Shown: positions 184-57,414, numbered from the stretch's first letter. The stretch is 64,000 bases of DNA from Promethearchaeota archaeon (GCA_048938005.1 JBHLMQ010000004.1:2447-66446), one strand, 5' to 3'. The notes: a model not told the origin generated them from the sequence alone. Program-made: numbers and translations.

Positions 184-1059
184 TTAAAAATCTTTTGTTT
201 TCTTTATCGGTATATCAAATTCTTCTAAAAGAGGTATGAGATGTTTTTTATTGGAGGAATTAGTTCCTTTCCAATCAATTATAAAATAATCAACATTTTC
301 AAGAGTGTTACTAATCATTTTCTTAATTAAGATTTCATCTAAATCCTGAATGTAATATTTTGGGCATATAAATGACATGGCAACATTTTTATTTCTAATT
401 AATCTATGAAAATTTGGCGCGTAATGTGTCCCACCAAAACCTAAGCCTATTTTTTGACTCCCTTCTTTTTTAAATTCTAAAAATTTGTAAATTGAGTTGA
501 TAATGGTATTTGTCAATAACTCTCCCGCTTCTTCAATTTTCCACTCTACTTCACTACTTCCTAATTCGATGAATATTAAAGGTTTTTCTAATTTTGTTGG
601 ACCGTGGTGTGTTACTTCTATATCGAGTGAAAAATCTGCTAATTGTGGTGATAATTTTTGTTCAATTAATGAAATAAATCCGGCCTTATGAAGTAAAGCA
701 CTTGATTTTGATAAATCTTGAGGATCGCCACCAAAATCCGTATCTTTACTCCAATTCCCAGTTGTATGAACTAAAAATGCAGGGCGAGCAGTTTTTGACG
801 TGTGACGGCTCGCAAAAATAAGTAAATCGGGATTTAATTTTGATTCCTCTAATTTTAAGTTATCTAAAAAAATTAATGGATCGTCTATTAAACCAAGAAA
901 TATTTCATTTTTGGGAATAAAACTTTTTAGCTTAAAAACCGGATGTTTATGCCAAGTAAAATTAACTTCTTCAAAATCAAAGGCAATAGAATTTAGAAAT
1001 CTATCACGCATGTTCATTGAAGCTATATCTTCGGCTGAATTTATTATTAGAAACTGGAT
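184..1059 (-). CDS. dtdA: Archaeal D-aminoacyl-tRNA deacylase (DTD2/GEK1 family); proposed ATC start at 1059
   Basis: Motifs IFASRH, HTTGNW, EVTHHGP, FIELGS, GFGGTHYAP. The frame extends upstream of the track ATG (1017) as IQFLIINSAEDIASMN, the family N-terminal strand. Confidence 0.9.
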   Translation of the reverse strand: MQFLIINSAEDIASMNMRDRFLNSIAFDFEEVNFTWHKHPVFKLKSFIPKNEIFLGLIDDPLIFLDNLKLEESKLNPDLLIFASRHTSKTARPAFLVHTTGNWSKDTDFGGDPQDLSKSSALLHKAGFISLIEQKLSPQLADFSLDIEVTHHGPTKLEKPLIFIELGSSEVEWKIEEAGELLTNTIINSIYKFLEFKKEGSQKIGLGFGGTHYAPNFHRLIRNKNVAMSFICPKYYIQDLDEILIKKMISNTLENVDYFIIDWKGTNSSNKKHLIPLLEEFDIPIKKTKDF

Positions 1060-1175
1060 TAAATTTCACCTTTGAAACTTTATCTTCTCTATATTTTAAA
1101 TTTTATATGAACATTAGATTTTTAATTAATTTATATCTAAAAACTTTAAAAATCTCAAAAATAATAACTATAGTA

Positions 1176-2138
1176 ATGACAGATGACTTAATAATAGTCC
1201 TAATTCTTGCCTTAGCTTTCGGGGTATTCTTGTTTATTGCAGATTACTTTGAGCATAAAATTATTCAACTACACGCTTCATTTATAGCTGGAATCTCTGT
1301 AGCTTATTTTTTCCTTGTAGTTCTTCCTGAAATAGCTAAACGACTTCCTGAGTTTCCATTTAATTTACAATTATTCGAATATCTCTTTGTATTAATTGGT
1401 TTTACATTTGTTCATATAACAGAAAAACTAATTCTACAAAAGGTTGAAGGAAAAACTCAGAAAAAAATGAGAAAACTACTCGAAAAGGAAAATATTCTAG
1501 AAAGTGTAGAGCGTAATATGGAAAAAATCCTAACAAGAGAAATAACACATCAAAATCTAAATGAAATTGCTCTAAGAGAAATAGCTAGAACACTATCTGA
1601 ATTAAATGATCAAGAAGAGAAAATGAAATTAGAGATAAATAAATATAAAATTAAGATTCAAAATAAAATAAATAAAGAGTTATCTAACTTCCGACTAATC
1701 ACAGATTATATTTACCACTTTCTTGTAGGTATTATTTTAATAGGATTATTATGGATTGAATTAGTAGGAGGTATTCTCTTTTTCGTATACGCATTTCTTA
1801 GAACCATTGTAACTAAAAGATCTGAAGCACATCTCATATTTACTGATTTAGAAATTTATGAAGAACAAAAATTTGAACGAAGAACAATTATTAAATATTT
1901 CTCAAGTGGGTCTGCTTTAACGGGAATAATAATTGGATTGATTATAAATATATTCTTCGGTGTTAATTTAGAATTCTTATTTATATTCTATTCCTTCATT
2001 TCTGGTGTGATTTTATATGTTCTAGTAAGGGAAGTTATCCCCGAAAAAGAGAAAGGAGATCCATTGAAATTTCTAATTGGCTTAGTGGGACTCGCTGTAA
2101 TAATAATTATTATTAATATTTTTATGAGTGTATTATAA
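1176..2138 (+). CDS. ZIP-like divalent metal transporter with a cytoplasmic coiled-coil insertion
   Basis: Multiple TM helices; SFIAG...VLPE and SFISGVILY...REVIPE resemble ZIP segments. Start moved to ATG 1176 (MTDDLIIVLIL). Confidence 0.6.
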   Translation: MTDDLIIVLILALAFGVFLFIADYFEHKIIQLHASFIAGISVAYFFLVVLPEIAKRLPEFPFNLQLFEYLFVLIGFTFVHITEKLILQKVEGKTQKKMRKLLEKENILESVERNMEKILTREITHQNLNEIALREIARTLSELNDQEEKMKLEINKYKIKIQNKINKELSNFRLITDYIYHFLVGIILIGLLWIELVGGILFFVYAFLRTIVTKRSEAHLIFTDLEIYEEQKFERRTIIKYFSSGSALTGIIIGLIINIFFGVNLEFLFIFYSFISGVILYVLVREVIPEKEKGDPLKFLIGLVGLAVIIIIINIFMSVL

Positions 2139-2295
2139 TGAATATTACACCTACTAATTCTCTCTACATCAAAAATCAAAGATTTATAAAACAAAATAAT
2201 TTGCATATATTTTCTTATTTAGATAAATTGTACCCTTTATAAAGATTTAAATTCATTAAAACTAAGTTTAAATTATCGTGAGGTTATGAAATAAA

Positions 2296-2862
2296 ATGGA
2301 TATGAAGAAAAAAAGTTTTAATGAAATCTTATCAATTGATGATGATGATAAAAAGATCATCGAAATGATTGAAAAAGATCCTGATATAACCCATAGCGAT
2401 ATTGCTAAAGAAATTGAAAAGTCACAACCTGCTGTAGGTGCTCGTATCATTAAATTAGAAAGAAAACATCTTTTAACTAAGCAAGTTGGATTCAATATCA
2501 AGAAAGTTGATATAAAAGTCGCTATTGTTTACATTTCTACAAAAGATGTTGATGATATTGTTTACAAGATTGAGAATTGCCCGTTTATTAATCATGCTTT
2601 TAAGATATCAGGAGAATTTAATGTACTCGCCTTTATTGCTGCTTCAGATTTACAAACAATTGAAAAACTAGTTGATTTATGCTTTAGAAGGGATAAAAAT
2701 GTAATCAATGTCAAGACAAATATCTTAATAGAAAGCATTCATGATTTTGTAGTTCCGATAGATTTTCAAATTGAGAATTTTGACGGAAGATATTGCGGTC
2801 CTGGATGTAATATGGCAGAAGATCTACCAAAATTTAAATTTAATCAAGATAATGAAGATTGA
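2296..2862 (+). CDS. Lrp/AsnC family regulator with C-terminal Cys motif
   Basis: HTH (DDDDKKII..ITHSDIAKEI.KSQPAVGARIIKLE), AsnC domain with CPF and SGEFN, tail CGPGC. Confidence 0.9.
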   Translation: MDMKKKSFNEILSIDDDDKKIIEMIEKDPDITHSDIAKEIEKSQPAVGARIIKLERKHLLTKQVGFNIKKVDIKVAIVYISTKDVDDIVYKIENCPFINHAFKISGEFNVLAFIAASDLQTIEKLVDLCFRRDKNVINVKTNILIESIHDFVVPIDFQIENFDGRYCGPGCNMAEDLPKFKFNQDNED

Positions 2863-2911
2863 TTAAATTATTTCCTTTTTAATTTTATAATTAATATTAT
2901 ACATTAATAGA

Positions 2912-3451
2912 TTATACCAAACCTTTTGCCTTGGCTATTCTGTATTTACATTTCTCTCCACAACCATCTTCCAATGTGGGATCATGCTCTTCAGAATCAA
3001 AATCAATCGGTAAAATGAAATCTTTTGCTATATCGATAACAATTTCCATAGAAACATTTTGAATATCCGGATTGTTTCGAAAGTGATAATTAATAATATT
3101 ATCAAGCTTTTGAAGTTTAGAACTTGCAAGTAATATACACACATTATGCTCCCCACTTAATCGAAATGCATTCAGCATAAAAGGACAATGCTTTGCCATG
3201 GCCATTATTTCGTCAGGATTTTTAGTTTTTAACTCGACAGTAGCTAAATGCAAATCTACTCTCTTAAAATTAATCCCTGGCTGAAACTGTAAAATCCCAT
3301 TTTTTTCCAGCTTTTTTATTCGCATACCAACAGTTGGTTGGGATCTATTTATTTTTGTAGCGATTTCTGTATGTGTAAGGTTTGGATCCTCCTGAACAAG
3401 AGCGATTATCTGCCTATCAATATCGTCAAGCTTTAATTTATCAGATATCAT
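2912..3451 (-). CDS. Lrp/AsnC family regulator with C-terminal Cys motif
   Basis: LDDIDRQII..LTHTEIA..RSQPTVGMRIKKLE; CPF; tail CGEKC. Confidence 0.9.
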   Translation of the reverse strand: MISDKLKLDDIDRQIIALVQEDPNLTHTEIATKINRSQPTVGMRIKKLEKNGILQFQPGINFKRVDLHLATVELKTKNPDEIMAMAKHCPFMLNAFRLSGEHNVCILLASSKLQKLDNIINYHFRNNPDIQNVSMEIVIDIAKDFILPIDFDSEEHDPTLEDGCGEKCKYRIAKAKGLV

Positions 3452-3598
3452 ATTTTTTTCTTCAAAATTATTTTTTCTCTTCTAATTATGTAATAATTTT
3501 TACAATTTATAAAATATTAGGGCTAATTTATAAAAAATCAGTTCTGATTATGTTCAGTTGTAAATACAAATAAATGAAATATTTTCATGATAACCTTA

Positions 3599-4267
3599 TT
3601 AAAAATTAGATAATGGAACCCTCCCATTATAATAGATTATCTTTCCATCAAAACTAATCTGAACGGCAACGATTTTAATACCCTTCTTTCTAGCTTCGCT
3701 TAAATTATTTGAAAATTTAGGATCCATATCCCAGTTCGGAGCAAAACTTTCTGCTCTCCGAACAACTAATAACAAAATAATACCATTATGGTTAATTATT
3801 TCTTTTACATGCCTCGCTCCACGTTCAGTGGGGGCATCAGGAAAAAGAGCTGTTCCCTCTTTAACCAATGAAACGCCTTTTACTTCCAATGGGACACCAT
3901 CAAGAAGAAAATCGATTCTACTATTTCCAATTTTTACTTCTTTTCTAATTTCTTTCACTTTGGAAAATTCTGGTAAATATTCAAATAATTTCAAAGCAAT
4001 TTTAGAATGTAAAGCTGTATCTATTAAAACCCATTCATTTCCAGCTTTGACCGCTTTGATATAATATTTTAATTTACCTTTCGAATGTGTAAATAAGATT
4101 TCAGCACCTTCAATAAGTAATTCTTTTAATCTACCAGGATCATGTATATGAGCAGTCTCATTTCGTTCCTTGTATTTGATTTCGCCAATAAATCTATTAG
4201 GCCTTGATATAAATGTACCTTTAATTAGATCAGGAATCTCAAAAAGGGGATTTTTAATAATGTTCAT
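3599..4267 (-). CDS. sfsA: SfsA-family DNA/RNA nuclease (sugar fermentation stimulation protein)
   Basis: RPNRF, AHIHDPGRLKELL, SRIDFLL, LEVKGV, FPDAPTERGARH, DPKF. Start moved to ATG 4267. Confidence 0.92.
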   Translation of the reverse strand: MNIIKNPLFEIPDLIKGTFISRPNRFIGEIKYKERNETAHIHDPGRLKELLIEGAEILFTHSKGKLKYYIKAVKAGNEWVLIDTALHSKIALKLFEYLPEFSKVKEIRKEVKIGNSRIDFLLDGVPLEVKGVSLVKEGTALFPDAPTERGARHVKEIINHNGIILLLVVRRAESFAPNWDMDPKFSNNLSEARKKGIKIVAVQISFDGKIIYYNGRVPLSNF

Positions 4268-4388
4268 GAATCCTATGCCTACCTTAATATAGCTTATATT
4301 TTGAGTAAATTTTAATACAAAATTAAGAGATTTTATTATAGAATATAACCTTAATAGATAAAAAGAGTTTTTTATTTGAATAATCATA

Positions 4389-4628
4389 ATGAGTAAGGCA
4401 GACGATCGAGCTACTATTGAAAGTTATAAATTTCATCATATAGACACCTCTAAATGTAAGCACTGCATCGAATTTTCTTGTGAAGAAGCATGCTTTAGAG
4501 GGATTTATGAGGTTAAAAATAAAGAATCTACTCCTAAATGTATAGTGGTGGAGGATCGTGAAGACAACTGCGTTAAATGCCATATTTGCACAACTGCATG
4601 TAAAGCTAAAGCAATAACTATAGATTAA
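4389..4628 (+). CDS. Small 2x[4Fe-4S]-type ferredoxin
   Basis: CKHC...C...C and CVKCHICTTAC Cys motifs. Confidence 0.85.
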   Translation: MSKADDRATIESYKFHHIDTSKCKHCIEFSCEEACFRGIYEVKNKESTPKCIVVEDREDNCVKCHICTTACKAKAITID

Positions 4629-4676
4629 AAAATCTTAGTGAAGAATAATAAAAAGAAAGTACAAGAGAAATGTGAA

Positions 4677-5186
4677 TTAATTTTCACATTTCCCGCAGCA
4701 ATTTTTTTCTAAATCAATCTCAGCATAATCGAAGTTTAAATTTATAGGCAAAACAAAATCATCTACAACATCTTCAATAATATCCATATGGACATTACAA
4801 ATTTCAGGATTACCTCGAAGATGATGATTCACTACATGATCGAGATCCTTTAATGATAAACCTGCGATTAAAATGCTGATATTTGTATCTCCGCTCAATC
4901 TAAATGCTGTGAGCATAAAGGGGCAGTTTTTTACAATATTAAAAATCTTTTTAGGATTTTTAGCTTGAATTTCGGCTCGTGCGAAATATAGATCGGCGAC
5001 TTTAATATTTATCCCTGCTTGATATTTTAAAACACCCAAATTTTCAAGTTTTTTAATCCGCATACCAACTGTAGGTTGGCTACGGTTAACATGTTCGGCA
5101 ATTTGAGTATGTGTGAGACTTGGTTCTTTTTGAATTAAATCCATGATTTTACAATCAATTTCATCAATTCCTATTTTTTCAGCCAT
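4677..5186 (-). CDS. Lrp/AsnC family regulator with C-terminal Cys motif
   Basis: IDEIDCKIM..LTHTQIA..RSQPTVGMRIKKLE; CPF; tail CCGKC; SD AGGTGA upstream of ATG 5186. Confidence 0.9.
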   Translation of the reverse strand: MAEKIGIDEIDCKIMDLIQKEPSLTHTQIAEHVNRSQPTVGMRIKKLENLGVLKYQAGINIKVADLYFARAEIQAKNPKKIFNIVKNCPFMLTAFRLSGDTNISILIAGLSLKDLDHVVNHHLRGNPEICNVHMDIIEDVVDDFVLPINLNFDYAEIDLEKNCCGKCEN

Positions 5187-5514
5187 CAATTGAATCACCT
5201 AATTTTGGATATATATGTAAGAAAATATATTCCACTTTCATATTTAAACTTTTTTATCATTTATATATTCATAATTATATAAAAAATCTAAAAAAAATTT
5301 CAATAAGCAATTACAAAATATAAAAAAGTATAGTAATATAATTTTTGTCCCTAAATACCCCAAATTAGATAAATTCAACATTAGCAAAATTCTTATTTAG
5401 TAGATATTTAATAAAACCTTTTATAAGTTATTAGCATAAATCTTTTTTAAATAGAAAAAAACATATTTCCTTAGATTGATTTTTAAATAATTGAAAATTG
5501 AGTATTCACCATAA

Positions 5515-6606: not shown

Positions 6607-6809
6607 TCATTAAATTTTATTGTATATCTTTTAAATTAAGAGGAATTATTGTAAGTTTATAATCTAAAAATAAAAATAGCGTTTGGTTTTAATTTTAAAT
6701 CCCATCTTCTTGATTTTATAATATTTAATATAAAGAACTTTTAAATCAGCTCTTTTGATCAAAGGTATTAAGAAACCAACCCATAATTTTTACTATTAAG
6801 GTGAAAAAT

Positions 6810-21862: not shown

Positions 21863-23215
21863 ATGAAAGTTGTTATAATCGGGAACAATATTTCTGGGAC
21901 ATTTACTGCTCAAAATATAAGATCTCTTAATGATGAAGTAGAAATTGAGGTCTATACGCAAGAAAGATATCCCTATTATACAAGAGTAAAACTGCCAGAA
22001 TTGATTTCTGAGAAAGTGACTATTGATGATCTAATTGTTTTTAACGAAGATTGGTATAAAACCAAAAAAATAGACTTATTCCTAGAAAAAAAAGTTAATA
22101 AAATCAGCCCGGCCTTAAAATCAATTCAGATTGAAGGTGTGGCTTCCCCAATCTCATATGATAAACTAATATTAGCACTTGGAAGCACTCCTAATATTCC
22201 ACCTATTAAAAATGCTTTCCAAATGAAAGAAGAAAAGAAGGGTGTTTTTACACTCCGGACTATTTATGATGCTCTAGAAATAAAAGAGTATATTAGAAAG
22301 AAAGATGTTGATAAAGCAATTGTTATTGGTGGAGGATTATTAGGATTAGAATTGGCTAATCAAATTAAAGATTGTGATATGAATACGACAGTAGTAGAAT
22401 TCTTCCCTCGTTTGCTACCAAGACAATTAGATGAAGAATGTGCCCTTATGTTAAAGGAAGAAATTGAAAATCGAGGAATAAAAGTGGTTTTAAATGTAGT
22501 CACAGAAGAAATTTTAGGAAATGGAGTAGTAACCGGAATTAAACTAAAAGGAGGTCAAGAATTAAACTCAGATATTGTTTTAATCCAAGCAGGCATCAAT
22601 CCGACTATAAATTTGGCTAAAGAAGCTGGAATTCAGACAAATAGAGGAATTATAGTTAATGACTTTTTAGAGACCAGTGAAAAAGATATCTATGCTGTTG
22701 GAGATTGTATAGAATACAAAAATCAAATATGGGGTATTATTCCAGCATGCATGGAGCAATCAAAAATAGCTGCTGCATCTATACTAGATTTAAAAAAAGT
22801 CGATTATAAGGGAACAACTCCTAAAAATACACTTAAAATCGTTGGATTAGAATTAACTTCAATAGGAACAATTGACCCTAGGATAGAAGAAGGTGGCGGT
22901 TGGGATATATTGAAAAAAGCTGATAAAAAAGACTGTTGTTACCAAAAATTAGTTTTAAAGGGGAGTAAATTAAAAGGAGCAATTTTATTTGGTGATAATA
23001 AAGCAATGTCTTATGTCTATAACAGGATGGAGGAAGATGTTGACAGAGAAGAGTTGAAAAAATTATTAGAATTATATTCTTATGTATGTAATAAATGTGG
23101 CGCAGAATATGATGAGGCTAAAATGGGTATCCTCTTTAAAGATTTACCACCCGGTTGGACATGCCCAAATTGTGGGGGTTCTAAAAAAGAATTCAAGATA
23201 AAAAGTAAATCCTAA
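21863..23215 (+). CDS. NAD(P)H:rubredoxin oxidoreductase-like flavoprotein with C-terminal rubredoxin domain
   Basis: YDKLILALGS, IGGGLLGLE, IYAVGDC; terminal CNKCG..YD...F.DLP..WTCPNCG. Confidence 0.9.
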   Translation: MKVVIIGNNISGTFTAQNIRSLNDEVEIEVYTQERYPYYTRVKLPELISEKVTIDDLIVFNEDWYKTKKIDLFLEKKVNKISPALKSIQIEGVASPISYDKLILALGSTPNIPPIKNAFQMKEEKKGVFTLRTIYDALEIKEYIRKKDVDKAIVIGGGLLGLELANQIKDCDMNTTVVEFFPRLLPRQLDEECALMLKEEIENRGIKVVLNVVTEEILGNGVVTGIKLKGGQELNSDIVLIQAGINPTINLAKEAGIQTNRGIIVNDFLETSEKDIYAVGDCIEYKNQIWGIIPACMEQSKIAAASILDLKKVDYKGTTPKNTLKIVGLELTSIGTIDPRIEEGGGWDILKKADKKDCCYQKLVLKGSKLKGAILFGDNKAMSYVYNRMEEDVDREELKKLLELYSYVCNKCGAEYDEAKMGILFKDLPPGWTCPNCGGSKKEFKIKSKS

Positions 23216-23241
23216 ATATATTCGTAATGAGGTGAAAGACG

Positions 23242-23385
23242 ATCTCTATCTATAGGTGTAAAATTTGTAATTATATTTATGATGACAATGAAAAAGATAA
23301 ACCTTTTGAAGAATTAGAAGAATCAGAATTTAGATGTCCTAAATGTAGATCTTCAAAGAAATTTTTTGTGAGAAAGCAAGCGTAA
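23242..23385 (+). CDS. Rubredoxin-like protein, 47 aa (not in ORF track; proposed ATC start)
   Basis: ISIYRCKICNYIYDDNEKDKPFEELEESEFRCPKCRSSKKFF; SD GAGGTGA 6 nt before ATC. Confidence 0.8.
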   Translation: MSIYRCKICNYIYDDNEKDKPFEELEESEFRCPKCRSSKKFFVRKQA

Positions 23386-23533
23386 TACTAATTCTTTTTG
23401 TTCCTATTTTAAGCTTCTAGTTCTTTGAAATGGATTATCTTTATAAAATATTAAATTAATATTTTTAATATATTTTCAATTTAAATCCATAAAATTAAAT
23501 AAAACCAATCAACAGAAAGAGATGAGATATATC

Positions 23534-23671
23534 ATGGGAAAATGGGAATGTCAAGCATGTGGATATGTGTATGATGAAGAAGCTGAGGGTACTAAATTTG
23601 AAGATTTACCAGATGATTGGACTTGCCCTGTTTGTGGTGTTGGGAAAGATATGTTCGAAAAAATCGAATAA
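23534..23671 (+). CDS. Rubredoxin, 45 aa (not in ORF track)
   Basis: [45 protein letters not shown]. Confidence 0.95.
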
Positions 23672-23815
23672 CCAATAAATATCTATATCTTTTTAATTTT
23701 TTTTTATTGTTTCTTTTCTCAAAAATTTTATAATAAATAGAATATAAGTTTTTAATTTGATTTGAATTAATATTAAAAAATAAATTATAACCTAATTAAT
23801 GAAGGTGAAATTGAA

Positions 23816-25021
23816 ATTACACATTTAGAGTTAATGAAAGATATTTACTATGTTGGTTACGTAGATTGGGAACTAAGAAATTTCCATGGATATTCAACTA
23901 ATCGAGGTAGCAGTTATAATGCATATATTGTCAAAGGAGAAAAAACAGTACTGATTGATACCATTAAGCGCCCCTACTTTGAATATTTTTTGAAAAACAT
24001 TAAAGATATATGCGATCCTTCTGAAATTGACTATTTTATTACAAATCACGTGGAGATGGATCATTCTGGTTCATTTCCATTAATCCTTAAACATCTTCCT
24101 AATGCTGAATTAATTGCTTCGAAAAGAGGGGTTGATATTTTAGAAGCTCATTATCATAATGAAGTAGATAATGAAATATTTAAAAAAGTTAGAGCTGTAG
24201 AGGAAGGAGACATATTAGACATTGGAAATGGTAAAAAGTTCACATTCGTCCCTATTCCAATGATTCATTGGCCTGATTCTATGGTATCATTTATGACTGA
24301 TGAGAATGGGAAAAACATATTGTTTTCTAATGATGCTTTTGGACAACATTATGCAACATCAAAACGGTGGGATGATGAAAATGATCTTACGGAGGTGTTT
24401 CAAGAAGCAGAAAAGTATTATGCAAATATCCTACTTCATCTTTCTGGCCTAATAGCAAGAACATTACCAAAGGTTGGAGCATTACCAATCGATCTTATAT
24501 GCACTTCCCATGGAGTTTGTTGGAGAAAACATATTCCTGAAATCTTAGAAAAATATACTAAATGGAGTAAAGGGGAAATTGATGAAAATAGTGTGCTTAT
24601 CGTATATGATACAATGTGGGATAGTACTGCGAAAATTGCTAAAGCTTTAACCAACGAAATCAAGCATCGAGGGATTCCAGTAAAGAGGTATAGATTAACT
24701 AATGCTGATTATTCCGATGTTATTACAGAGGCAATGAAGGCAAAAGCAATATTGGTTGGGAGTCCTACTCTAAATAATGGACTATATCCAACGGTAGCAG
24801 AATACTTATCTTATCAAAAGGGGTTAAAACCTATGAATAAAGTGGGATTAGCTTTTGGTTCATATGGTTGGGGTGGAGGAGCAGTAAAAGAAATCGTTGA
24901 GTTAATGAAGGCCGCTAAAATTGAAGTAATGGAAGAAACAATAGAAATTAAATTTGTACCTAAACCAGAAGATTTAGACTTTAAAGAAATTATAGACAAA
25001 TTAGTTGAAAAAATGGGATAA
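23816..25021 (+). CDS. fprA: Flavodiiron protein (FprA); proposed ATT start at 23816
   Basis: HVEMDHSG, HWPDSM, SNDAFGQH, SHG, flavodoxin domain YDTMWDST..GSPT..FGSYGWGG. Confidence 0.93.
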   Translation: MTHLELMKDIYYVGYVDWELRNFHGYSTNRGSSYNAYIVKGEKTVLIDTIKRPYFEYFLKNIKDICDPSEIDYFITNHVEMDHSGSFPLILKHLPNAELIASKRGVDILEAHYHNEVDNEIFKKVRAVEEGDILDIGNGKKFTFVPIPMIHWPDSMVSFMTDENGKNILFSNDAFGQHYATSKRWDDENDLTEVFQEAEKYYANILLHLSGLIARTLPKVGALPIDLICTSHGVCWRKHIPEILEKYTKWSKGEIDENSVLIVYDTMWDSTAKIAKALTNEIKHRGIPVKRYRLTNADYSDVITEAMKAKAILVGSPTLNNGLYPTVAEYLSYQKGLKPMNKVGLAFGSYGWGGGAVKEIVELMKAAKIEVMEETIEIKFVPKPEDLDFKEIIDKLVEKMG

Positions 25022-43720: not shown

Positions 43721-43971
43721 ATAAAAATTTTTAGTTATTTATTATATTATCTTTATGATATTTAATATTATTTCTTTAGTTTTATTCGTTTCAGGAGGCT
43801 GTGAATTCTTTTTTTTGAAGATTTTATAGCATTTATTCTACTTATCAGTACATAGTTTCATATCTGATATGAATAGACAAATATTTTTGCGATTTTAATT
43901 AAAATACAATTTTTTTTATTTTTACATTAATTTCTATACTCAGGCTTTACTCTTTTAGAGGAGATTATAAA

Positions 43972-45621
43972 ATTATTGAAGAAGAAGAATACATTGATTA
44001 CACAGAGTTTTTAGATAAAATAAGAACTTATGAGTCCAAAATTAAACAAGTAAAAGATCCTATTGAGAGGACTAAAACAATAAAAGAGATGGTTTCAAGT
44101 TCAATCACTTTTTCTACCGAAATTGCCCAATCTGGAGAATACTTTGAAGCTGGAGAGTTATTATTTTCTGTTGCAGAAATTGTGGAAAATCTTGACTTTT
44201 CGGAAGCACTTGAATTGTATAGACAAATTATTGAACTTTATAAAAAACTTATTGTTGATTATAAACTTCAAGCGAAATTACATGAGATTGCTGAATTATA
44301 CTTGAGAATCGCGGATATTTATCGTGAGAAGATCGGAGATATACAATCTGAAAAAAGGAATATCTTAAATAGTATAAAATTCTTAAAGCAAGAAAGTGAA
44401 CTTTTAAAAGAATTTAATGAAAATAGAAAAATAGCTCAAAATTTTCAAAATATTGCAGAATTATTTTTTAAATTTTCTGATTTCAATAAAGCTATAAAGT
44501 ATTATGAAAAAGTTATTGAAATTTCGAAATCTCATAATTATTATGATATGTTATCGTTTTCCTATCAGCAAATTGGATCTTGTTATGAAGAAATCGACGA
44601 TTATAACAAATCACAAGATGTAATTTTAGATGGAGTAGAATTTTTTTCTGATTTAGTCACTAGATTTGAAGATAAAAATGATAATTTGACTCTAGCTCAG
44701 ATCTATCAGATATTAAAAAATCTCTATAAAATTTTGGATAAAAAAGATCAATATACAAATTTCTCTAAAAAAGAAGCTGGAGCCTATATAGATCTAGCAG
44801 AAACATTGGAAAAGAAAAAAGAAAATTACCACAAAATTGCTAGATATTATCGGGGTGCAGCTTTATGTTATCAAGAAATACAGAATAATTTAATTGAATG
44901 TGCTTCATGTTTTATATTGGGTGGTAACTTCTCAGAGAAAACCGGAGATTTCAATCAAGCTGCACTAAATTTTTTTGATGCAGCTAATGTTTTTAAAGAA
45001 TTAGATAATCTTGAAATGGCATATAAACATTTTATAAAAGCTGGAGATAATTTTTGGAAGATTGGAAGCATTAACGAATCTACTGAGAGTTATTTGAATG
45101 CTTATGATATTGCTCTGGAGGGTAATCTAGAATTTAATAGGTTTGGAATTTTCAATCAAATCGTAAGAGGATTAAATAAAATTGCTGAAGAAGGATTAAA
45201 AAATAAGCAATTCTTTACAGCAGCAACTCTTATTTTAGAAAGTATAAAGTTTTACGAGCAACTTGATACCGCGAAGGATTTTCTTTTACGAGAAATGGTT
45301 AATAATCTATATCGTTATTATTATAGAGCAGCTAACCTTAAAAAAATAGGATATTCTCATATTGTTCAGAGTTATGTCCTGGCATCAATCTCATGCATTT
45401 TAAATGGTAAATTGGAAAAAGCTTGGAAAGTTATATCTGAAATAGAATCTGAAGGGATCACTGTTAAAAAATATAAAGAAATAATAAAAATAATGATTGA
45501 ACAAGTTTCTAATGGAAAAGAAGTTGAATTAGAAATTTTTCCTTATTATCTAAGAAGGTTAATCGAAAGTTCCGAAGAAATATTGTATCTTTTAAAGTTA
45601 TTTAAAGGATTTAAAATATAA
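43972..45621 (+). CDS. TPR/alpha-SNAP-like repeat protein; proposed ATT start at 43972
   Basis: Repeats such as IARYYRGAALCYQE, AALNFFDAANVFKE, AYKHFIKAGDNFWK; 39 further open codons upstream of ATG 44089. Confidence 0.75.
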   Translation: MIEEEEYIDYTEFLDKIRTYESKIKQVKDPIERTKTIKEMVSSSITFSTEIAQSGEYFEAGELLFSVAEIVENLDFSEALELYRQIIELYKKLIVDYKLQAKLHEIAELYLRIADIYREKIGDIQSEKRNILNSIKFLKQESELLKEFNENRKIAQNFQNIAELFFKFSDFNKAIKYYEKVIEISKSHNYYDMLSFSYQQIGSCYEEIDDYNKSQDVILDGVEFFSDLVTRFEDKNDNLTLAQIYQILKNLYKILDKKDQYTNFSKKEAGAYIDLAETLEKKKENYHKIARYYRGAALCYQEIQNNLIECASCFILGGNFSEKTGDFNQAALNFFDAANVFKELDNLEMAYKHFIKAGDNFWKIGSINESTESYLNAYDIALEGNLEFNRFGIFNQIVRGLNKIAEEGLKNKQFFTAATLILESIKFYEQLDTAKDFLLREMVNNLYRYYYRAANLKKIGYSHIVQSYVLASISCILNGKLEKAWKVISEIESEGITVKKYKEIIKIMIEQVSNGKEVELEIFPYYLRRLIESSEEILYLLKLFKGFKI

Positions 45622-50315: not shown

Positions 50316-50852
50316 TTAGTAATATTCTATTTTAGAAACAAGTAAAGCAAAGAAGCCATAGAAAACAATATTTATTATGCAACTTACGATGATTCTAATA
50401 AGAATAATATCAAATGTCAACCAACCATAAGCTGTATATGTAGTGAATATATGATTTTGAGTAAACGGGCTTAAAAAAATCGCAATAATTATTGAAACTG
50501 TACTGATGACTGCCGTTAAAAGCCATCCTCCTAAGCATTGAATTTTACTCTCTCCAAATCTTCCAGCAAGAATCGGTGCTATTATTAGAGCAGCTAAGTA
50601 ACCTAACCCTAAGATCAAAACAGTTAAATCGAAATTACCTAAAAAAGGTTGGGCTATTGTCCAATCTAAAATTATATATGGGGTACTAATAATTGAACCA
50701 AATAAATAATATAGAATCATCAGAGGATAGGTTTGAATGTTATAAAACAATACATTAAATCCTGGACCAATTGCATAATATATTATTGTAAAAATGAAAT
50801 TTAAACCAACAAAAGCAGCTATACTTAATAAAAAAGCTTTACCAAATCCCAT
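50316..50852 (-). CDS. Hypothetical multi-pass membrane protein
   Basis: About five hydrophobic helices; start moved to MGFGKAFLLS. Confidence 0.7.
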   Translation of the reverse strand: MGFGKAFLLSIAAFVGLNFIFTIIYYAIGPGFNVLFYNIQTYPLMILYYLFGSIISTPYIILDWTIAQPFLGNFDLTVLILGLGYLAALIIAPILAGRFGESKIQCLGGWLLTAVISTVSIIIAIFLSPFTQNHIFTTYTAYGWLTFDIILIRIIVSCIINIVFYGFFALLVSKIEYY

Positions 50853-51128
50853 TAAACTCAGACTCTTTTTTATAAAGTGAATGTTAATATTTATTATTTT
50901 CAAGGAAGAAATAGATTTTAAATTTTAGGGTGTAATTAAATCAAATTATTTGTTTTCGTTGGATATATTTTTCATTTCCCATTATGTCATTATAGATTTA
51001 TATTTTCATAATTTTTTAAAAATAAAATAATATTATTCATTGAATTATTAAAAGGTTATAAAGAAGTAAATAATAGAGTAAATGCTCAAAATTTTAATAA
51101 ATTATGAAATCCTAAAAAGACTATAATA

Positions 51129-52157
51129 ATGAAAAGAGTTAATGAAAAATTTACTCTTGGAAAGCTTAAACACGATTATTTAGCTAAGTTACTCTCAAAT
51201 ATAGAAATACAAGATAGTAGAGTAATAATGGGTTCTAAAATCGGTGAAGACGCTGCAGTTATAGATATACCTGGAAAGAATTATTTAGTAGCTAAAACTG
51301 ACCCAATTACATTCGCTACTGATGAAATAGGCTATTATGCAGTAATGGTAAATGTTAATGATCTCGTATGCACAGGAGCTAAGCCGAAATGGTTTCAATC
51401 AACGATATTGTTACCTGAAAATCTCACTACCACTGAAATTATTGAAAAAATATTTAATAATATTCACAGTACATGCAAATCAATGGGAATAACTGTAGTT
51501 GGGGGGCATATAGAAATTACTCCTAGGCTTGATCGACCAATTATAGTAGGATCTTTAATAGGAGAGGTAGAGAAAAAAAAACTTGTACTTACCTCAGGTG
51601 CAGAACCAGGAGATGCACTTATATTGACAAAAGGCATTTTTATTGAGGGTACTTCTATTATTGGACGAGAAAAAGAAAGAGATTTGATAAATAAAGGTTT
51701 CAATCCTGAATTTATAGAAAAATGTAAGAATTATCTTTATAATCCTGGAATAAGTGTTTTTAAAGAAGCTCTTCTTGCAAATGAACATTTTAAAATAAAA
51801 TCTATGCACGATCCAACAGAAGGAGGTTTAGGATGCGGTATTGCTGAAGTGGCAATAGCATCTGATACAGGAGTAATAATTGAAAGAGAAATGGTTAATA
51901 TATTACCCGAGCCTTCAGAATTAAGTGAAATTTTTAATATAAATCCAATGGGTACAATCTCTTCTGGATCTCTATTAATTGCTATAGATGATCAATTCAG
52001 TTCAGAGTTAGTTAACCTATTGAAAAAGAATGAAATTAATGCAGAGAAAATTGGAGAATTTGTCCTGAAAAAAAATGGTTTAAAAATTAAAGAAAAAGAT
52101 GGAAAAATAAAACCTTTAGAATATTCTGAAAAAGATGAAATAATAAAAATTTTTTGA
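51129..52157 (+). CDS. AIR synthase-related (PurM/HypE-like) protein
   Basis: GEDAAV, TDPIT, NVND, GGH.E, MHDPTEGG; lacks the HypE C-terminal PRIC. Confidence 0.85.
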   Translation: MKRVNEKFTLGKLKHDYLAKLLSNIEIQDSRVIMGSKIGEDAAVIDIPGKNYLVAKTDPITFATDEIGYYAVMVNVNDLVCTGAKPKWFQSTILLPENLTTTEIIEKIFNNIHSTCKSMGITVVGGHIEITPRLDRPIIVGSLIGEVEKKKLVLTSGAEPGDALILTKGIFIEGTSIIGREKERDLINKGFNPEFIEKCKNYLYNPGISVFKEALLANEHFKIKSMHDPTEGGLGCGIAEVAIASDTGVIIEREMVNILPEPSELSEIFNINPMGTISSGSLLIAIDDQFSSELVNLLKKNEINAEKIGEFVLKKNGLKIKEKDGKIKPLEYSEKDEIIKIF

Positions 52158-52331
52158 TTGTTTTAAGAAAATATATGTTAGATTTAGATATTCATTAAAA
52201 TAGACATGTTTTATCTCATTAAACTAAAATTTTTATTTCGATATTTTTATTTTATATTATAAGTAATATTAATTTCTAAGGGATGTCTAATACAGAATAA
52301 ATAAATAGATAGACTAAAGAATTGGTCAAAA

Positions 52332-54257
52332 TTGGCGTATAAAGAGTTAAGATACATTATAGAAAATCTTCAAGAAAGAGCTAACGAGCAGGAACTAACC
52401 ATTAAAACTATTAATGGTGTGTTATTTGAAATTTTAGAGAAAAAACCTGCGCAGTTTGAAGAATTCAAAAAAAATATTAAACTAAAATGGAAATCATTTG
52501 TAGAAAAAAATCACAAACGAATAATTAAAAAAACATTTACATTATTTTTCTATGAAAATTTCCATGATCTACTTAGTTACTTTTTGGATATGTTTTTTGG
52601 TTTTAATGAAAATTCCTTGAAACTATCTAGTAAAGAAAAAATATCTGATAAGATAATATATCTTGAGTATAATTATCTCTTAAATCCAGAGGAAGAAGAA
52701 AGTTTTACAAGAATTTCTGACGAATTTCAAATTGAAATGTTATATGGATTTTCATTTCTTACGGGCTATCTCTATTATGTTGTTCGACTTTTAGGGATGG
52801 TTATTAGAAAAGCAATTCACGAAAAAATCTTCATTCTACTTGACGCTGTTATCGTCAAAGATGGAATTGCAAACAAAAACTTGAATTTTATGATTATAAT
52901 TAAAGATAGTAAAGATGACATCTTTTATTCCTATTATAATATGGTATTATATTATTTCTTAAGGCAAATTAAGGGTATTCCAGAACAATACTATGAGAAT
53001 TTATTAAAAGGAAGAGAAAAATTATATCAGATTGCTTTAGACGAATATTCATCTGCAAAAGATAGATTAGTTGATTTATTATATTATTTTTATAAAAAGT
53101 GCAATTTATTACAAAGCTTTTCCCCTTTATTAGATTTCTTTAATTTTGTTGGAGCTAGGGTAGAAGACTCTGTATTTTCTAAAGTTGATATTATCAAAAA
53201 GGGATTCCTAGCAAATTTGGATGAATATACTACTGAGAAAAAAAATTCAATTATCATATTCTTTAATTATCTTGATAAGAAATCAACTTTGTATTCAACA
53301 TTTCAAGCAAATAATCTACCATCTCCAAAATCACAATTAAATTTATTCCTTCTCTATATGAAATATTATTTTGGTAGTGGTCTTGAAGCATTGGAAGTCG
53401 GTGATGTATTATTTTTACCTGAAACTTTTAAAGCAACATTAAATCAATATAATAAAAGTGAAGAGGACGTAATTGGAGCAAATTCTATTAAAAATGTGAA
53501 AGATTTTTTGAATTTCTTGTCCGTGTTGTCAAATATTGAGAATATTGACCCATTTTTTCATAAAATATTTAAAAAAAACCTTTCTCAACTAAATTATGGC
53601 TTTTTTAAAACATTCTTGAAAAGTTTTAATACAAATTTTTCTCAGATAATAACTCAAGAAAATGAAATTCTTTCAGAAAATCCTGAGAATACCCCATTCA
53701 CATTTAACATTATTGTTGACCATATATGTAGAATTCTCTATGTGCTAATTGATAAAATATTTATGAGATCTTCTCCAGATGAAGCATCACAAAATTTCAT
53801 CGATCCACGTAGTCGATATATTGGCAAGAATATTGCTTTAAGAGTTTTAGAACTTTTTGTTTTTCAAGATATAAACTATTCTGACGACGTTTGGCCAGAT
53901 TATATTATTAGTTTAAACAGAGAACACCTTAAGAATGAATTGAATAACTTTAACATAAGCATTCCTAAGAAAAAATTCTATTCTATTGAAGAATTAATAC
54001 AAATAATGATAACTTACAATATTCAGTCTTTTACTGATCAGCCTTTTTTCGAAGAGTGGTTAATATATGAAATAATAATCCCGTTAAATAATTTAATTCA
54101 AGATATTCGTAAGTCTGTTGAGGATAAATCAAATGAAATTGAAGTATATGAAAAATTAAGCGAATATCTACTTTCAGGTATAAAAGATGAAGAAATTATA
54201 AAAGATTTTAAATTTTTATGCCAGCAATTTGCTCCATTTTGGAAAAATGTTAAATGA
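52332..54257 (+). CDS. Large hypothetical protein (641 aa)
   Basis: Long ORF, TTG start, helical and aromatic-rich; no motif recognised. Confidence 0.75.
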   Translation: MAYKELRYIIENLQERANEQELTIKTINGVLFEILEKKPAQFEEFKKNIKLKWKSFVEKNHKRIIKKTFTLFFYENFHDLLSYFLDMFFGFNENSLKLSSKEKISDKIIYLEYNYLLNPEEEESFTRISDEFQIEMLYGFSFLTGYLYYVVRLLGMVIRKAIHEKIFILLDAVIVKDGIANKNLNFMIIIKDSKDDIFYSYYNMVLYYFLRQIKGIPEQYYENLLKGREKLYQIALDEYSSAKDRLVDLLYYFYKKCNLLQSFSPLLDFFNFVGARVEDSVFSKVDIIKKGFLANLDEYTTEKKNSIIIFFNYLDKKSTLYSTFQANNLPSPKSQLNLFLLYMKYYFGSGLEALEVGDVLFLPETFKATLNQYNKSEEDVIGANSIKNVKDFLNFLSVLSNIENIDPFFHKIFKKNLSQLNYGFFKTFLKSFNTNFSQIITQENEILSENPENTPFTFNIIVDHICRILYVLIDKIFMRSSPDEASQNFIDPRSRYIGKNIALRVLELFVFQDINYSDDVWPDYIISLNREHLKNELNNFNISIPKKKFYSIEELIQIMITYNIQSFTDQPFFEEWLIYEIIIPLNNLIQDIRKSVEDKSNEIEVYEKLSEYLLSGIKDEEIIKDFKFLCQQFAPFWKNVK

Positions 54258-54272
54258 ACATGATTTGAATAT

Positions 54273-54779
54273 TTAGGTAATTTTAAATATCTTTAAAAAT
54301 TTTAAAAAATCTCTTTCAATATCTATTATTGGTAAACTTAAGATTTCTTTTTTACCAAAATCTCTTAAACAGATTACTCCAGAGATCATTCTAACGTGTT
54401 CTGTCAATTGTTCTTCAACATCACCCATTTTTGATATGCATAATACTGTTGGGTTGTTTAAATTCCTAAAACCTTCTGTAAATATTACATCTATTTTGTG
54501 AGGGCCAGCATTAAGCCATTTTACAAGTATGTCTAATTTATTAATCGATGTTTTCATGAAAATAGCAGTTTCATTATTAACATTTTGAATCACGGAATAA
54601 GATGCTCCAACTTTCGTGAATTTATAAGAATCTTTTCCTTTCTTATCAACTGGGTGGTGCTTTACATTTTTTATTACTGCAATATTATAATTTAGATTTT
54701 TTTTTAGTAACGTTATAGCAGTTGTGATAAAATTCGTCTTTCCAGAACCAGAATATCCAATAACATCTATTATTTGAAT
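54273..54779 (-). CDS. mobB: Molybdopterin-guanine dinucleotide biosynthesis protein B; proposed ATT start
   Basis: GYSGSGKT, AVIK, D..GKDS..F..VGA, DVIFTEGF. Confidence 0.88.
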   Translation of the reverse strand: MQIIDVIGYSGSGKTNFITTAITLLKKNLNYNIAVIKNVKHHPVDKKGKDSYKFTKVGASYSVIQNVNNETAIFMKTSINKLDILVKWLNAGPHKIDVIFTEGFRNLNNPTVLCISKMGDVEEQLTEHVRMISGVICLRDFGKKEILSLPIIDIERDFLKFLKIFKIT

Positions 54780-54946
54780 AAAAATCACACCTGTTAATCT
54801 ATTGTTTTATTTCATTATATTCTATTTCATTTCGAATTCTTTTTCTATTTTTATTTTTTTTAATGAAAAAAAAATATATTATTTTGCTATTTAATATTTA
54901 TTTAAATAAGAATTTTCTAAAGAAATCAAAAAATCTTTGAAAATTA

Positions 54947-56938
54947 ATGTCAACGAAAAAAGAAAGGATTGTTTTTGACGCTAATTTCTTTATTTGCATG
55001 CTACAAATTAAAGCTCGTAATTTTTTAGATAATTTACATAAAGCAGCAGAGGATTTAGGGTATGAATACTACATCTCTCAAATTGTATTCAATGAAATCA
55101 AAGCTCCTCATACTTATATAAACAAACTGAAAAGTATTATAAATGTTGAAAAAGTTTTTCTTTATGAAATTGATGATATAAAAGATAATCTTGACCAATT
55201 TAATGTTAAATTTCCCGCTCAAGATCCTGATCTCTCACTTATTTGTATAGGAAAGAGATTATTGGACCAGAATGAAAAAATGCCTATTCACCTTGTAACA
55301 GATGACTTTAAACTAGCAAAAAATACAAATCTAATTTATAAAAGCAAAATTAACATCTTATCTCTTTCAAGCTTCCTTTTAAAAGTACAAAGAACAATTG
55401 CCAACTCTCAGATGAGGAAATATTTTAAAAATATTTGGAGGCGAAGCTTAAATTATACGTTGTCTTATATGATCGAACGCTCCAAAATCTATCCTGCCGA
55501 ACAAAAGATTACATGGTTGATTGAAAAAGCGATAGCTGTTACAGAAAACTCGATCTTAACTCAAGATATCGAGTTAGAGAACCCAGACGCTGGCGTTAAG
55601 TTTGAGATTGGTACTTCTAGATATACTGATGAACTTGATATTGCTGAGAAGTATATATCAAATCAAGCTCTCCCTCAGAGTGAAGAGGAAAAAATATTTG
55701 GGATTATAAAATTTCTTGAAAATTTAAAAATTTCAAGGGAGTATGTAATTCGGGCTCGGGAAGCTATAATTAAAAGTGAATCGAAAGATGCAGTAAAATT
55801 ATTAAAAAGGGGGAATGGTTTTTTAGTATCTTTACTTCAAGTTGCATCAGGACAATTAACGAATATAAAGGATTACGATATTGTAGAGCAGTTGATATGT
55901 TCTGAAATTAGTAAAATGGAATTTTTACGAGCATTTTTATTGGTTTCCCTTGGGCGCATTAATGCTGCAGTTGATTCACTTGAAAGGGCAGCATTATTCT
56001 CAGTTATTATTCATAATTATAAAACTTGTCTAACTCTGAATTATTTAAAGGCTTTAATATACTTATTTCATGGACTTTATAAAAGTGCAATTAGTCAGTA
56101 TAATTTTACTGAAGAACTAGCTGATATTTATGAAGATGATAAGCTGAGACTCAAATGTTTAATTGGTAAAGCTATAGCAATTTATATTCAAGGGGAAGAT
56201 CGTAATACAGCGATGAATATAATGGAAGAAATCTCAAATATTGATCTCGATGAAAACTTTCTTGATGCCATAGTAGTATTTAGCGAGCTTGGTGATTATT
56301 TCTTGGCATTAGGGCATTCTCAAATAGCAACAAATCTTTACAACCAAGCACTAGAAATCTCAATTGACTATAAATTATCATTTAAAAGTGAGACTTTAAT
56401 AGAAAAACTAAAAAGATCTTATATTGCAACAGTTTTAGATGGATATTCAGCAGAAGATATGGTTGATAAATTAGATCTTTTATTAGATAAAGCATATGAA
56501 ATTAAAGATGTTGAAACATATAATGAACAAATAAAGAAAATTTCAAGCTTTAATCTCTTGTTTTATACGCCATTTCCGTATATTACTGGTAAAAGGAAGT
56601 CCATTCCTTACTCAAAATTACCAAAGGAACTTCAAGATGATTATTTAGAAGTTGTATATTTCGAAAAATCAAAAGAAATTCAAAACCAAATTCTTTTTAT
56701 TGTTTCTCATTATGAATTAGGTTTACTCGGAATAAAGGTGAAAACGGATGAGAACATAACTGGTATTGCTGAAAATTACTCTCTTAAGATAAAACCTACA
56801 GCTAATGTAAAGATATATGAGCCTGACGAGGTTTTAAGAAATGAATTTTTAATTCGAGCTATTGTTGAAATAACTCAGAAAGATCAGGTTCAAATTAATT
56901 ATACACTCCCATCTTTCTTTAAACAATTGAATCTATGA
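54947..56938 (+). CDS. PIN-domain protein with TPR repeats
   Basis: IVFDANFFI, E, DPDLSL, LVTDDFKL (PIN acidic residues); TPR-like helices from about aa 300-500. Confidence 0.75.
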   Translation: MSTKKERIVFDANFFICMLQIKARNFLDNLHKAAEDLGYEYYISQIVFNEIKAPHTYINKLKSIINVEKVFLYEIDDIKDNLDQFNVKFPAQDPDLSLICIGKRLLDQNEKMPIHLVTDDFKLAKNTNLIYKSKINILSLSSFLLKVQRTIANSQMRKYFKNIWRRSLNYTLSYMIERSKIYPAEQKITWLIEKAIAVTENSILTQDIELENPDAGVKFEIGTSRYTDELDIAEKYISNQALPQSEEEKIFGIIKFLENLKISREYVIRAREAIIKSESKDAVKLLKRGNGFLVSLLQVASGQLTNIKDYDIVEQLICSEISKMEFLRAFLLVSLGRINAAVDSLERAALFSVIIHNYKTCLTLNYLKALIYLFHGLYKSAISQYNFTEELADIYEDDKLRLKCLIGKAIAIYIQGEDRNTAMNIMEEISNIDLDENFLDAIVVFSELGDYFLALGHSQIATNLYNQALEISIDYKLSFKSETLIEKLKRSYIATVLDGYSAEDMVDKLDLLLDKAYEIKDVETYNEQIKKISSFNLLFYTPFPYITGKRKSIPYSKLPKELQDDYLEVVYFEKSKEIQNQILFIVSHYELGLLGIKVKTDENITGIAENYSLKIKPTANVKIYEPDEVLRNEFLIRAIVEITQKDQVQINYTLPSFFKQLNL

Positions 56939-56994
56939 CTTTTTTAGTATTAAATAATATAGAAAAGAAATTTTAGATATATAATTGATTTACT

Positions 56995-57267
56995 CTATTC
57001 TCTTCTTAAACTCTTATCTCGTTGACTGATCTGGTGACCATGAATAGCACAACTAATACAATAATATTTAGTTTTACTTGGAGCTTGAATTATAGTACCA
57101 GCTTTTTTCAATTCAGTATACATTCGACCATCAACAAGAGAAACTCTTTTTGTAACGGCTTTTGCTTTACTTCGAGCAACAAATCTTCCACATTTGCTGC
57201 ATTGCACTCTAGCATAATGTCCTTTACTAGAACCGCTTCTACCGCCACTTTTTCTTTTTTTTGGAAT
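56995..57267 (-). CDS. rps26e: 30S ribosomal protein S26e; proposed ATT start at 57267
   Basis: PKKRKSGGR, VQCSKCGR.V...KA, YCISCAIH. Confidence 0.93.
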   Translation of the reverse strand: MPKKRKSGGRSGSSKGHYARVQCSKCGRFVARSKAKAVTKRVSLVDGRMYTELKKAGTIIQAPSKTKYYCISCAIHGHQISQRDKSLRRE

Positions 57268-57414
57268 AAAAATCAGCTTTTTTTTAATTTTACTAATTAA
57301 TTTTAATATTTCTATAGAAAGTGAATTAGACAAAACTTAAAAAATTTATGCTTTCATTTAGATTATTGATAAAATTAGTAAATTTTAAAGTAAACTTTAA
57401 CAATTTAATTCTAA

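Follow-up and report, generated by a model that had tools for sequence, protein, structure and literature searches.

Shine–Dalgarno-led ATT, ATA and ATC codons as probable start codons in a genus of Lokiarchaeia-type Asgard archaea

Can codons other than ATG, GTG and TTG serve routinely as translation starts in an archaeon? The question is raised by a stretch of 64,000 nucleotides from a Promethearchaeota archaeon (GCA_048938005.1 JBHLMQ010000004.1:2447-66446, or G000:C17:2447-66446; the whole stretch is called the window below), in which a first-pass annotation had noticed six genes with ATT or ATC at the expected first position, a few nucleotides behind a Shine–Dalgarno (SD) motif, and had proposed that such starts are systematic in this lineage. 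The window is part of a metagenome-assembled genome (MAG) of 3.72 Mb in 101 contigs (29.8% GC, 95% completeness, 7% contamination), and it comes from a Lokiarchaeia-type Asgard archaeon. We write ATH for ATT, ATA or ATC, and call ATG, GTG and TTG canonical. It is very probable, judging from the DNA, that ATT, ATA and ATC are real and routinely used start codons in this genus. Ortholog conservation, profile coordinates and a controlled genome-wide enrichment support the proposal and show that coding begins at the ATH sites, that these sites are conserved and interchange with ATG within the genus, and that they are specific to SD motifs. ATH use is also far commoner here than in a genome from another family that is just as AT-rich.

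Non-canonical starts in the window

For each gene concerned, orthologs were sought in 18 further genomes of the genus and in 12 belonging to three other families of its order, 30 relatives in all, and stop-to-stop translations were scanned against Pfam and NCBIfam. The ten sites of the first-pass annotation were recomputed, and all coordinates, motifs and spacings proved exact, for the six ATT/ATC sites as well as for the four ATG starts given for comparison. Where about six such genes in roughly 60 had been counted, we find five sure cases among about 62 window genes (dtdA, a rubredoxin-like open reading frame (ORF), fprA, a TPR gene and rps26e) and one, mobB, that is ambiguous owing to an in-frame GTG. 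The sites are as follows.

184-1059, minus strand: dtdA coding sequence, start ATC at 1057..1059
1066..1072, minus strand: SD of dtdA, AAGGTGA, 6 nt before the ATC
23229..23235, plus strand: SD of the rubredoxin-like ORF, GAGGTGA, 6 nt before the ATC
23242..23385, plus strand: rubredoxin-like ORF, 47 codons and a stop, start ATC at 23242
23802..23808, plus strand: SD of fprA, AAGGTGA, 7 nt before the ATT, conserved in the genus
23816..25021, plus strand: fprA-like flavodiiron protein coding sequence, start ATT at 23816
43958..43963, plus strand: SD of the TPR gene, GAGGAG, 8 nt before the ATT; TGAGGAGA is conserved in the genus
43972..45621, plus strand: TPR/SNAP-like protein coding sequence, start ATT at 43972 or the adjoining ATT at 43975
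54777..54779, minus strand: candidate mobB start ATT (ambiguous), with AGGTGTGA 5 nt before it
56995-57267, minus strand: rps26e coding sequence, start ATT at 57265..57267
57273..57279, minus strand: degenerate SD-like motif of rps26e, AAGCTGA, 5 nt before the ATT
6810, 11930, 9503 and 37830: the ATG starts used for comparison

In dtdA and in the rubredoxin-like ORF the TGA inside GGTGA is itself an in-frame stop, three codons before the ATC, so nothing further upstream can be the start. Residue 4 of the dtdA frame corresponds to position 2 of NF003071, and residue 6 of the rubredoxin-like frame to position 4 of NF045768, which puts the ATC at position 1 in both cases; the rubredoxin-like ORF also matches PF00301 (E = 7.6e-6). 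The first ATG of dtdA lies 14 codons downstream, within the conserved fold, and the rubredoxin-like ORF has its first in-frame canonical codon only at 44 of the 49 codons between stops. The dtdA start is ATC in seven, ATT in six, ATA in two and ATG in one of the 16 genus loci, 14 of which retain GGTGA. Among 43 further MAG loci, GGTGA is present in 26 of the 32 with ATH and in none of the seven with ATG. Such drift among ATC, ATT, ATA and ATG has the look of an exchange close to neutral, not of a weakness that has been tuned. The rubredoxin-like ORF starts with ATT at six of nine genus loci, and with ATC, GTT and TTG at one each.

For fprA, residue 17 of the stop-to-stop frame corresponds to position 3 of NF008887, and the ATT, residue 14, stands one before position 1. 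Twelve of 15 genus loci have ATT there, two have ATG at the same position and one has ATG three codons further on. The ATT of the TPR gene is found at all 19 genus loci, most of which have an in-frame stop two to four codons upstream; the first ATG comes 39 codons downstream, and this N-terminus is without profile coverage.

The ATT of rps26e encodes the residue at position 1 of both PF01283 and NF006816. It is ATT in 16 and ATA in one of 17 readable genus loci, most with in-frame stops three to four codons upstream, and 13 of the 17 retain AGCTGA where orthologs of other families carry GGTGA. The 12 loci from other families start with ATG (nine), GTG, TTG and ATT (one each; the last is GGTGA-7-ATT at locus L020).

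Sequence variability among orthologs also marks the start of coding. At codon positions 1, 2 and 3 it is 0.13, 0.04 and 0.37 after the ATH of dtdA, 0.09, 0.09 and 0.28 after the ATT of rps26e, and 0.10, 0.09 and 0.28 over the 38 codons of the TPR gene that precede its first ATG, where it is flat upstream. That variability is codon-periodic from the ATH on and flat upstream of it (0.2–0.39) shows that coding begins at the ATH.

Sequencing or assembly error is ruled out, since the same codons recur in 16–19 independently assembled genomes of the genus, which keep ATT, ATC or ATA or exchange it for ATG, and in contigs from four studies. No other letter occurs at 57265-57267 (rps26e) or at 54777-54779 (mobB) in contigs from four runs of four studies, among the 41 of 80 matches listed.

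Two of these loci have further features. The stretch 21863-23673, immediately upstream of fprA, holds three successive rubredoxin-type modules: the CxxC...CxxC C-terminus of a 450-aa protein, the ATC-started 47-codon ORF, and an ATG-started rubredoxin (23536-23673). The GTT ortholog of the 47-codon ORF (locus L063 of G016) stands behind GGTGA-6 with an in-frame TGA, and may be a start with two mismatches, or else a defunct gene or an error. In the window and in two relatives only, the rps26e frame is open upstream of the ATT (57268-57336, minus strand; here to a TTG at 57333), so a gene caller would append a spurious extension of 22 residues here and miss the gene in most relatives.

The genome-wide signal and its rival explanations

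The whole genome was searched for SD sites at ORF heads, defined by an in-frame stop at most 10 codons upstream and an open frame of at least 100 codons; strict SD motifs were four 5-mers, with aligned spacing 4–10. There are 436 such sites, 249 canonical and 187 orphan, and 107 of the orphans have an in-frame ATH. For GGTGA alone, 95 heads have a canonical codon at spacing 4–10 and 86 do not, and most of these 86 have ATH at spacing 5–7. Two kinds of controls were used, namely out-of-frame triplets at the same sites and composition-matched permuted 5-mers (three sets). At orphan sites, ATH makes up 114 of 424 in-frame codons versus 61 of 885 out-of-frame ones (27% versus 7%; odds ratio 5.0, Fisher p = 1e-21), while permuted 5-mers give 55–61 of 388–463 in-frame codons (13–14%). 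Isoleucine codons account for about 9% of interior in-frame codons, and AAT, TTA and TAT, three AT-rich triplets that served as a control, are under-represented in frame. The excess is present at each SD length from 4 to 9 nt, and the ATH starts lie at aligned spacing 4–10, mainly 5–7.

Split by codon, the in-frame and out-of-frame counts are 57/424 versus 20/885 for ATT, 40 versus 26 for ATA and 17 versus 15 for ATC. The two codons originally named, ATT and ATC, are thus both in use, but the set was incomplete: ATA is second only to ATT, and ATC comes third.

Under the strict rules the SD-specific excess amounts, conservatively, to about 56–85 genes; including SD 4-mers brings in about 84 more, a noisy figure. 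The real total is larger, since among the window cases these rules recover only dtdA and the ambiguous mobB. In an unselected ribosomal-protein cluster, two of 19 genes are ATH-started, uS14 with ATA and uL15 with ATT, both at GGTGA-6 (the other gene names in the cluster were read from N-termini and are not tool results). ATH thus affects about a quarter of strong-SD starts, and about 8–10% of genes in small unselected samples. A 5-mer logo around first ATGs finds the SD in only a minority of genes.

ACG was observed at three GGTGA-6 heads and CTG at others (contigs C9, C37, C91 and C57), and across the four strict 5-mers ACG occurs four times in frame versus zero times out of frame. Further single-mismatch codons may therefore also initiate.

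We scanned 20 of the 107 ATH candidates against NCBIfam. Fifteen support the ATH as the N-terminus, three are uninformative and two favour a nearby ATG. The 15 supporting candidates are the following.

uS10, uL16, uS12, thiolase, one Usp, a small GTPase, a GPN GTPase and MoeB/ThiF
AOR, IscU/NifU, an RmlD-like protein, V-ATPase subunit D, a PRK04217-family protein, an FAH-family protein and TFB

Their residues run closely with profile positions (residue 4 is position 3 in uL16, 3 is 3 in thiolase, 2 is 2 in MoeB/ThiF, 4 is 4 in V-ATPase subunit D and 2 is 1 in IscU/NifU), and the next canonical codon lies 6–73 codons downstream. The ribosomal proteins using ATH are uS10, uS12, uS14, uL15, uL16 and eS26 (the product of rps26e); TFB and the initiation factor aIF1 use it too. 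In 800 kb of G006, another genome of the genus, 13 orthologs exceed 60% identity. An ATH is kept in 11 of them, sometimes a different one (ATA/ATT or ATC/ATA, for instance), and the other two have ATG and TTA. For TFB and a Rab-like GTPase, G006 has a stop between the GTG of the SD and the ATH.

For the comparison of lineages we took 800 kb each of G006 and of G026, a genome of another family with 30.8% GC. G006 has 54 canonical versus 25 ATH-only sites, and G026 has 59 versus seven, with no ATT enrichment (odds ratio 3.7, Fisher p = 6e-4 for the genus against G026). AT-richness alone is ruled out as the cause, since an equally AT-rich genome has so few ATH-only SD sites. In G027 (53.6% GC) the head statistic is uninformative, with 133 orphan sites, mostly in spurious long frames.

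Several points weigh against taking ATH codons for routine starts. That initiation takes place at ATH, with methionine as the first residue, we infer from comparison of DNA, and no RNA run is listed as containing the window stretch. The genomes of the genus are kin and thus not independent, and the contrast between lineages is made with one outgroup genome of comparable GC content. A broad first test, which compared the SD-preceded rates of all 64 codons between ORF heads and interiors (four motifs, seven spacings), gave no enrichment of ATT or ATC (1.70% and 2.01% in heads, against a background of 1.5–2%); in that test, background matches and sites inside ORFs diluted the signal. Some of the 107 candidates must be false, as permuted motifs already yield their 13–14% of in-frame ATH, and the peak at spacing 6 is partly inflated because the head criterion holds automatically at spacing 6 or 9 from GGTGA. 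For an ABC ATPase and E1 beta, an ATG two to four codons downstream fits better than the ATH. The fprA gene has a possible second start in the ATG at 23834, six codons downstream of the ATT. The start of mobB is ambiguous in this genome because of an in-frame GTG (54786-54788), three codons upstream and within the supposed SD: PF03205 and TIGR00176 begin two residues after the ATT, and the GTG fits the profile equally well. The relatives of mobB are mixed, five having ATT or ATA after an in-frame TGA and six having ATG. In mobB, fprA and uS10, nearby canonical codons may serve as alternative or additional starts.

The GTG of mobB, the ATG of fprA, the two candidates out of 20 and the permuted-motif background all speak for a different account, in which starts have been mis-assigned: the true start would be a canonical codon upstream or downstream, and the ATH an ordinary isoleucine codon or untranslated. 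We consider this highly improbable for the set as a whole. Upstream starts are excluded by in-frame stops two to four codons before the ATH in dtdA, the rubredoxin-like ORF, the TPR gene and aIF1, and in the relatives for rps26e; in these genes no usable canonical codon lies between that stop and the conserved N-terminus, which is not the case for mobB here. Downstream starts would delete 14–73 residues that are codon-periodic and match profiles from position 1–5, and the rubredoxin-like ORF has nothing canonical to offer before codon 44. In the sure window cases with Pfam or NCBIfam coverage, the ATH is at or adjoining profile position 1 (at position 1 itself, where orthologs have their first methionine, in dtdA, the rubredoxin-like ORF and rps26e), and in some relatives ATG replaces ATT at the identical position.

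The geometry of the sites brings up reinitiation. Only ribosomes fresh from translating an upstream ORF, for instance the preceding gene or a tiny ORF ending in the TGA of GGTGA, would then accept ATH, by translational coupling in place of de novo initiation on the 30S subunit. The commonest arrangement, GGTGA-6-ATH with two codons between the in-frame TGA and the ATH, would suit this; the rubredoxin-like ORF begins 27 nt after the preceding gene, and some dtdA relatives have a short ATG...TGA frame that ends in the SD. Most dtdA relatives, however, have more stops and no start codon before the TGA. At spacing 6, where the peak is partly built into the head criterion, ATG and TTG are abundant in the same way. 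ATH starts are found less often near the end of an upstream ORF: 27% of 98 lie within 30 nt of an upstream ORF on the same strand, versus 50% of 229 canonical SD-led starts. Translational coupling is therefore rejected as a general cause, and the chance that reinitiation explains the ATH starts is next to negligible.

Initiation factors, initiator tRNA and a possible mechanism

If ATH codons are routine starts, as we think very probable, what in the initiation machinery could permit them? The first-pass annotation had named aIF1, aIF2 and the initiator tRNA. The gene for aIF1 (SUI1) lies outside the window.

G000:C41:33718-34032 (L269:1477-1791), minus strand: aIF1, ATT start

All 16 genus genomes that are readable at this gene have the ATT. 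TGA and TAA come directly before it in frame; in one genome a single other codon separates stop and ATT. The product of 105 aa covers positions 2–101 of the 102 of NF002096, the archaeal SUI1 model, at 113 bits versus a cut-off of 98. In this genome ATG is the start of the genes for aIF1A and for the alpha, beta and gamma subunits of aIF2. The aIF1 start of other genera in the order is ATA (g5), TTG (g2 and g9) or ATG (g4 and g8).

Two side observations concern these factors. The in-frame sequence AGG TTG TGA TAA upstream of aIF1 is strictly conserved in the genus, and its TTG, which a stop follows at once, may act as a start-stop element of minimal length or belong to a weak SD (GTGAT, spacing 9). 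The frame of aIF2 gamma (G000:C24, minus strand, the frame containing 78040-78291) has an N-terminal extension of about 110 residues before the GTPase domain, with two helix-hairpin-helix-like repeats (GIGKATAEK motifs).

Bacterial infC, which encodes IF3, is the textbook gene with an AUU start, AUU being otherwise a rare exception in bacteria. As with infC, the factor that rejects non-canonical starts is here itself AUU-started, whereas the other initiation factors use ATG. According to one study, 30S complexes of Sulfolobus solfataricus bind both AUG and AUU mRNAs without aIF1, and only AUG mRNAs with it (PMC4705826). Since aIF1 is thus reported to exclude AUU, and its own gene starts with AUU, the layout has the logic of infC, and by analogy this suggests that aIF1 may limit its own synthesis by a similar feedback. 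The likeness would be one of logic only: aIF1 has a SUI1 fold unrelated to IF3, other genera of the order vary at the aIF1 start, and ATH is used here in dozens of genes.

The initiator tRNA gives no comparable lead. It has the anticodon CAU, an A1:U72 pair and an anticodon stem of three G:C pairs (GGG/CCC), and its anticodon stem-loop is identical in G000 and G002 of the genus and in G024 and G021 of two other families (modifications are invisible at the sequence level). With no difference between genus and outgroup, an altered initiator tRNA, one of the causes suggested at the outset, is rejected at that level. No 16S rRNA gene turned up in the genus members G000, G006 and G002; the outgroup 16S 3' end is GGATCACCTCCT and matches the SD cores used. 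A further difficulty comes from g5, where aIF1 is ATA-started, yet the readable rps26e, dtdA and fprA starts are ATG: for ATH to be used widely, it takes more than a weak start at aIF1. The best lead is still aIF1, because its own gene is ATT-started throughout the genus.

Most tRNA genes of this genome carry introns (32 nt in the initiator and 65 nt in a second CAU tRNA), and a tRNA-Sec gene is found on contig C97. Because of the many introns ARAGORN reports only 9–16 tRNA genes (nine without its intron mode), and the Rfam tRNA model finds 25.

A mechanism could be put together as follows. A strong SD (core GGTGA, GAGGT or GGAGG), complementary to the 16S 3' end ...GGAUCACCUCCU, would set the codon 5–7 nt downstream in the P site. 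There the ordinary Met-tRNAi (CAU) would pair with the A and the U, the mismatch at the third position being tolerated, and the SD duplex would supply the binding energy missing from the weaker codon–anticodon pairing. Proofreading by aIF1, with a changed stringency, would be permissive enough for highly expressed genes to use ATH. Taken together, start selection may be relaxed at the third base across the genus, with AUU, AUA and AUC efficient enough for ribosomal proteins and TFB, at a level set by aIF1 in a homeostatic AUU loop; we offer this tentatively, as a possibility built on the infC analogy and somewhat less probable than even.

Strict conservation at some genes points another way, to weak starts that are regulatory and gene-specific (as in infC, with expression held low or responsive to aIF1) under a machinery as strict as elsewhere. 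ATT is kept at aIF1 (16 of 16 genomes), the TPR gene (19 of 19) and rps26e (16 of 17) although nearby synonymous sites vary, and weak starts also occur outside the genus, at aIF1 in g5 (ATA) and in g2 and g9 (TTG) and at one outgroup rps26e (GGTGA-7-ATT, L020). But the excess spans dozens of unrelated genes, including six ribosomal proteins and TFB; the dtdA codon drifts freely among ATC, ATT, ATA and ATG; and the frequency is much above that in the equally AT-rich outgroup genome. We regard gene-specific weakness as an unlikely explanation of the whole.

Known systems and consequences

Initiation at ATH is in itself a known phenomenon; what sets this genus apart is that it is unusually frequent, across the lineage, and extends to core genes. 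NCBI table 11 permits ATT, ATC and ATA as rare initiators; the codons are the same here, SD-led and presumably read by the initiator Met-tRNA, but they are much more frequent, and they occur in ribosomal proteins, TFB and aIF1 rather than in a handful of regulated genes. As in mitochondrial ATN initiation (tables 2, 4 and 5), a genome rich in A and T uses AUU, AUA and AUC as common starts beside AUG. In mitochondria the mRNAs have no SD, and AUA is often reassigned to methionine through a modified tRNA, whereas the ATH excess here is tied to SD motifs and the initiator tRNA sequence is ordinary. Near-cognate initiation in eukaryotes offers a looser analogy, in that stringency would be governed by a homologous factor (eIF1/aIF1), and the mRNA of eIF1 itself reportedly has a weak initiation site (Ivanov et al. 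2010, a work cited in PMC6237735). Eukaryotes scan, and use mainly CUG, GUG and ACG as near-cognates, at low efficiency; here, unlike in eukaryotes, SD spacing determines the codon, and it is the third base that is mismatched.

Nearer to the genus, a report on the AtubA tubulin of a Kariarchaeaceae (Heimdall-type) MAG proposes a single 'rare ATT start codon' (PMC13394414). As with our genes, an Asgard N-terminus had been deposited too short, and an upstream ATT at a plausible distance from a ribosome-binding site restores the fold; that proposal differs in concerning one gene in a different class, without genome-wide or comparative analysis (PMC13394414). A review describes the SD as not prevalent in Prometheoarchaeum (PMC7531240), and a Haloferax ribosome-profiling study puts near-cognates at about 30% of putative alternative sites, which its authors set aside (PMC7261190). 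A full-text literature search, whose coverage excludes supplements and subscription journals, returned no systematic report of ATT, ATA or ATC initiation in Asgard or other archaea.

The most direct consequence is for annotation. Standard gene callers accept only ATG, GTG and TTG, and with SD-led ATH starts they truncate or miss genes; the earlier expectation that N-termini and small genes are mis-annotated in this lineage follows from the core claim. Truncation would cost dtdA 14 residues, the TPR protein 39, and thiolase, AOR, uS12, uL16, MoeB and TFB 27–73, and short genes such as the rubredoxin-like ORF, uS14 and eS26 would be lost outright. Such predictions are what Asgard proteins are expressed from and their structures solved with, and the N-terminus of the tubulin has already been repaired by hand with an ATT (PMC13394414).

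Third-base near-cognate starts at this frequency in core, highly expressed genes are unusual outside organelles. The archaea that show them are related to the ancestor of eukaryotes, in which the homologue eIF1 controls start stringency, and the AUU-started aIF1 makes feedback control a concrete hypothesis. Comparison with a sister family that is just as AT-rich is a natural experiment in which to look for what determines initiation fidelity, be it residues or modifications. If a relaxed regime set by aIF1 does operate in this genus, the stringency of start-codon selection would be an evolvable trait at the level of lineages.

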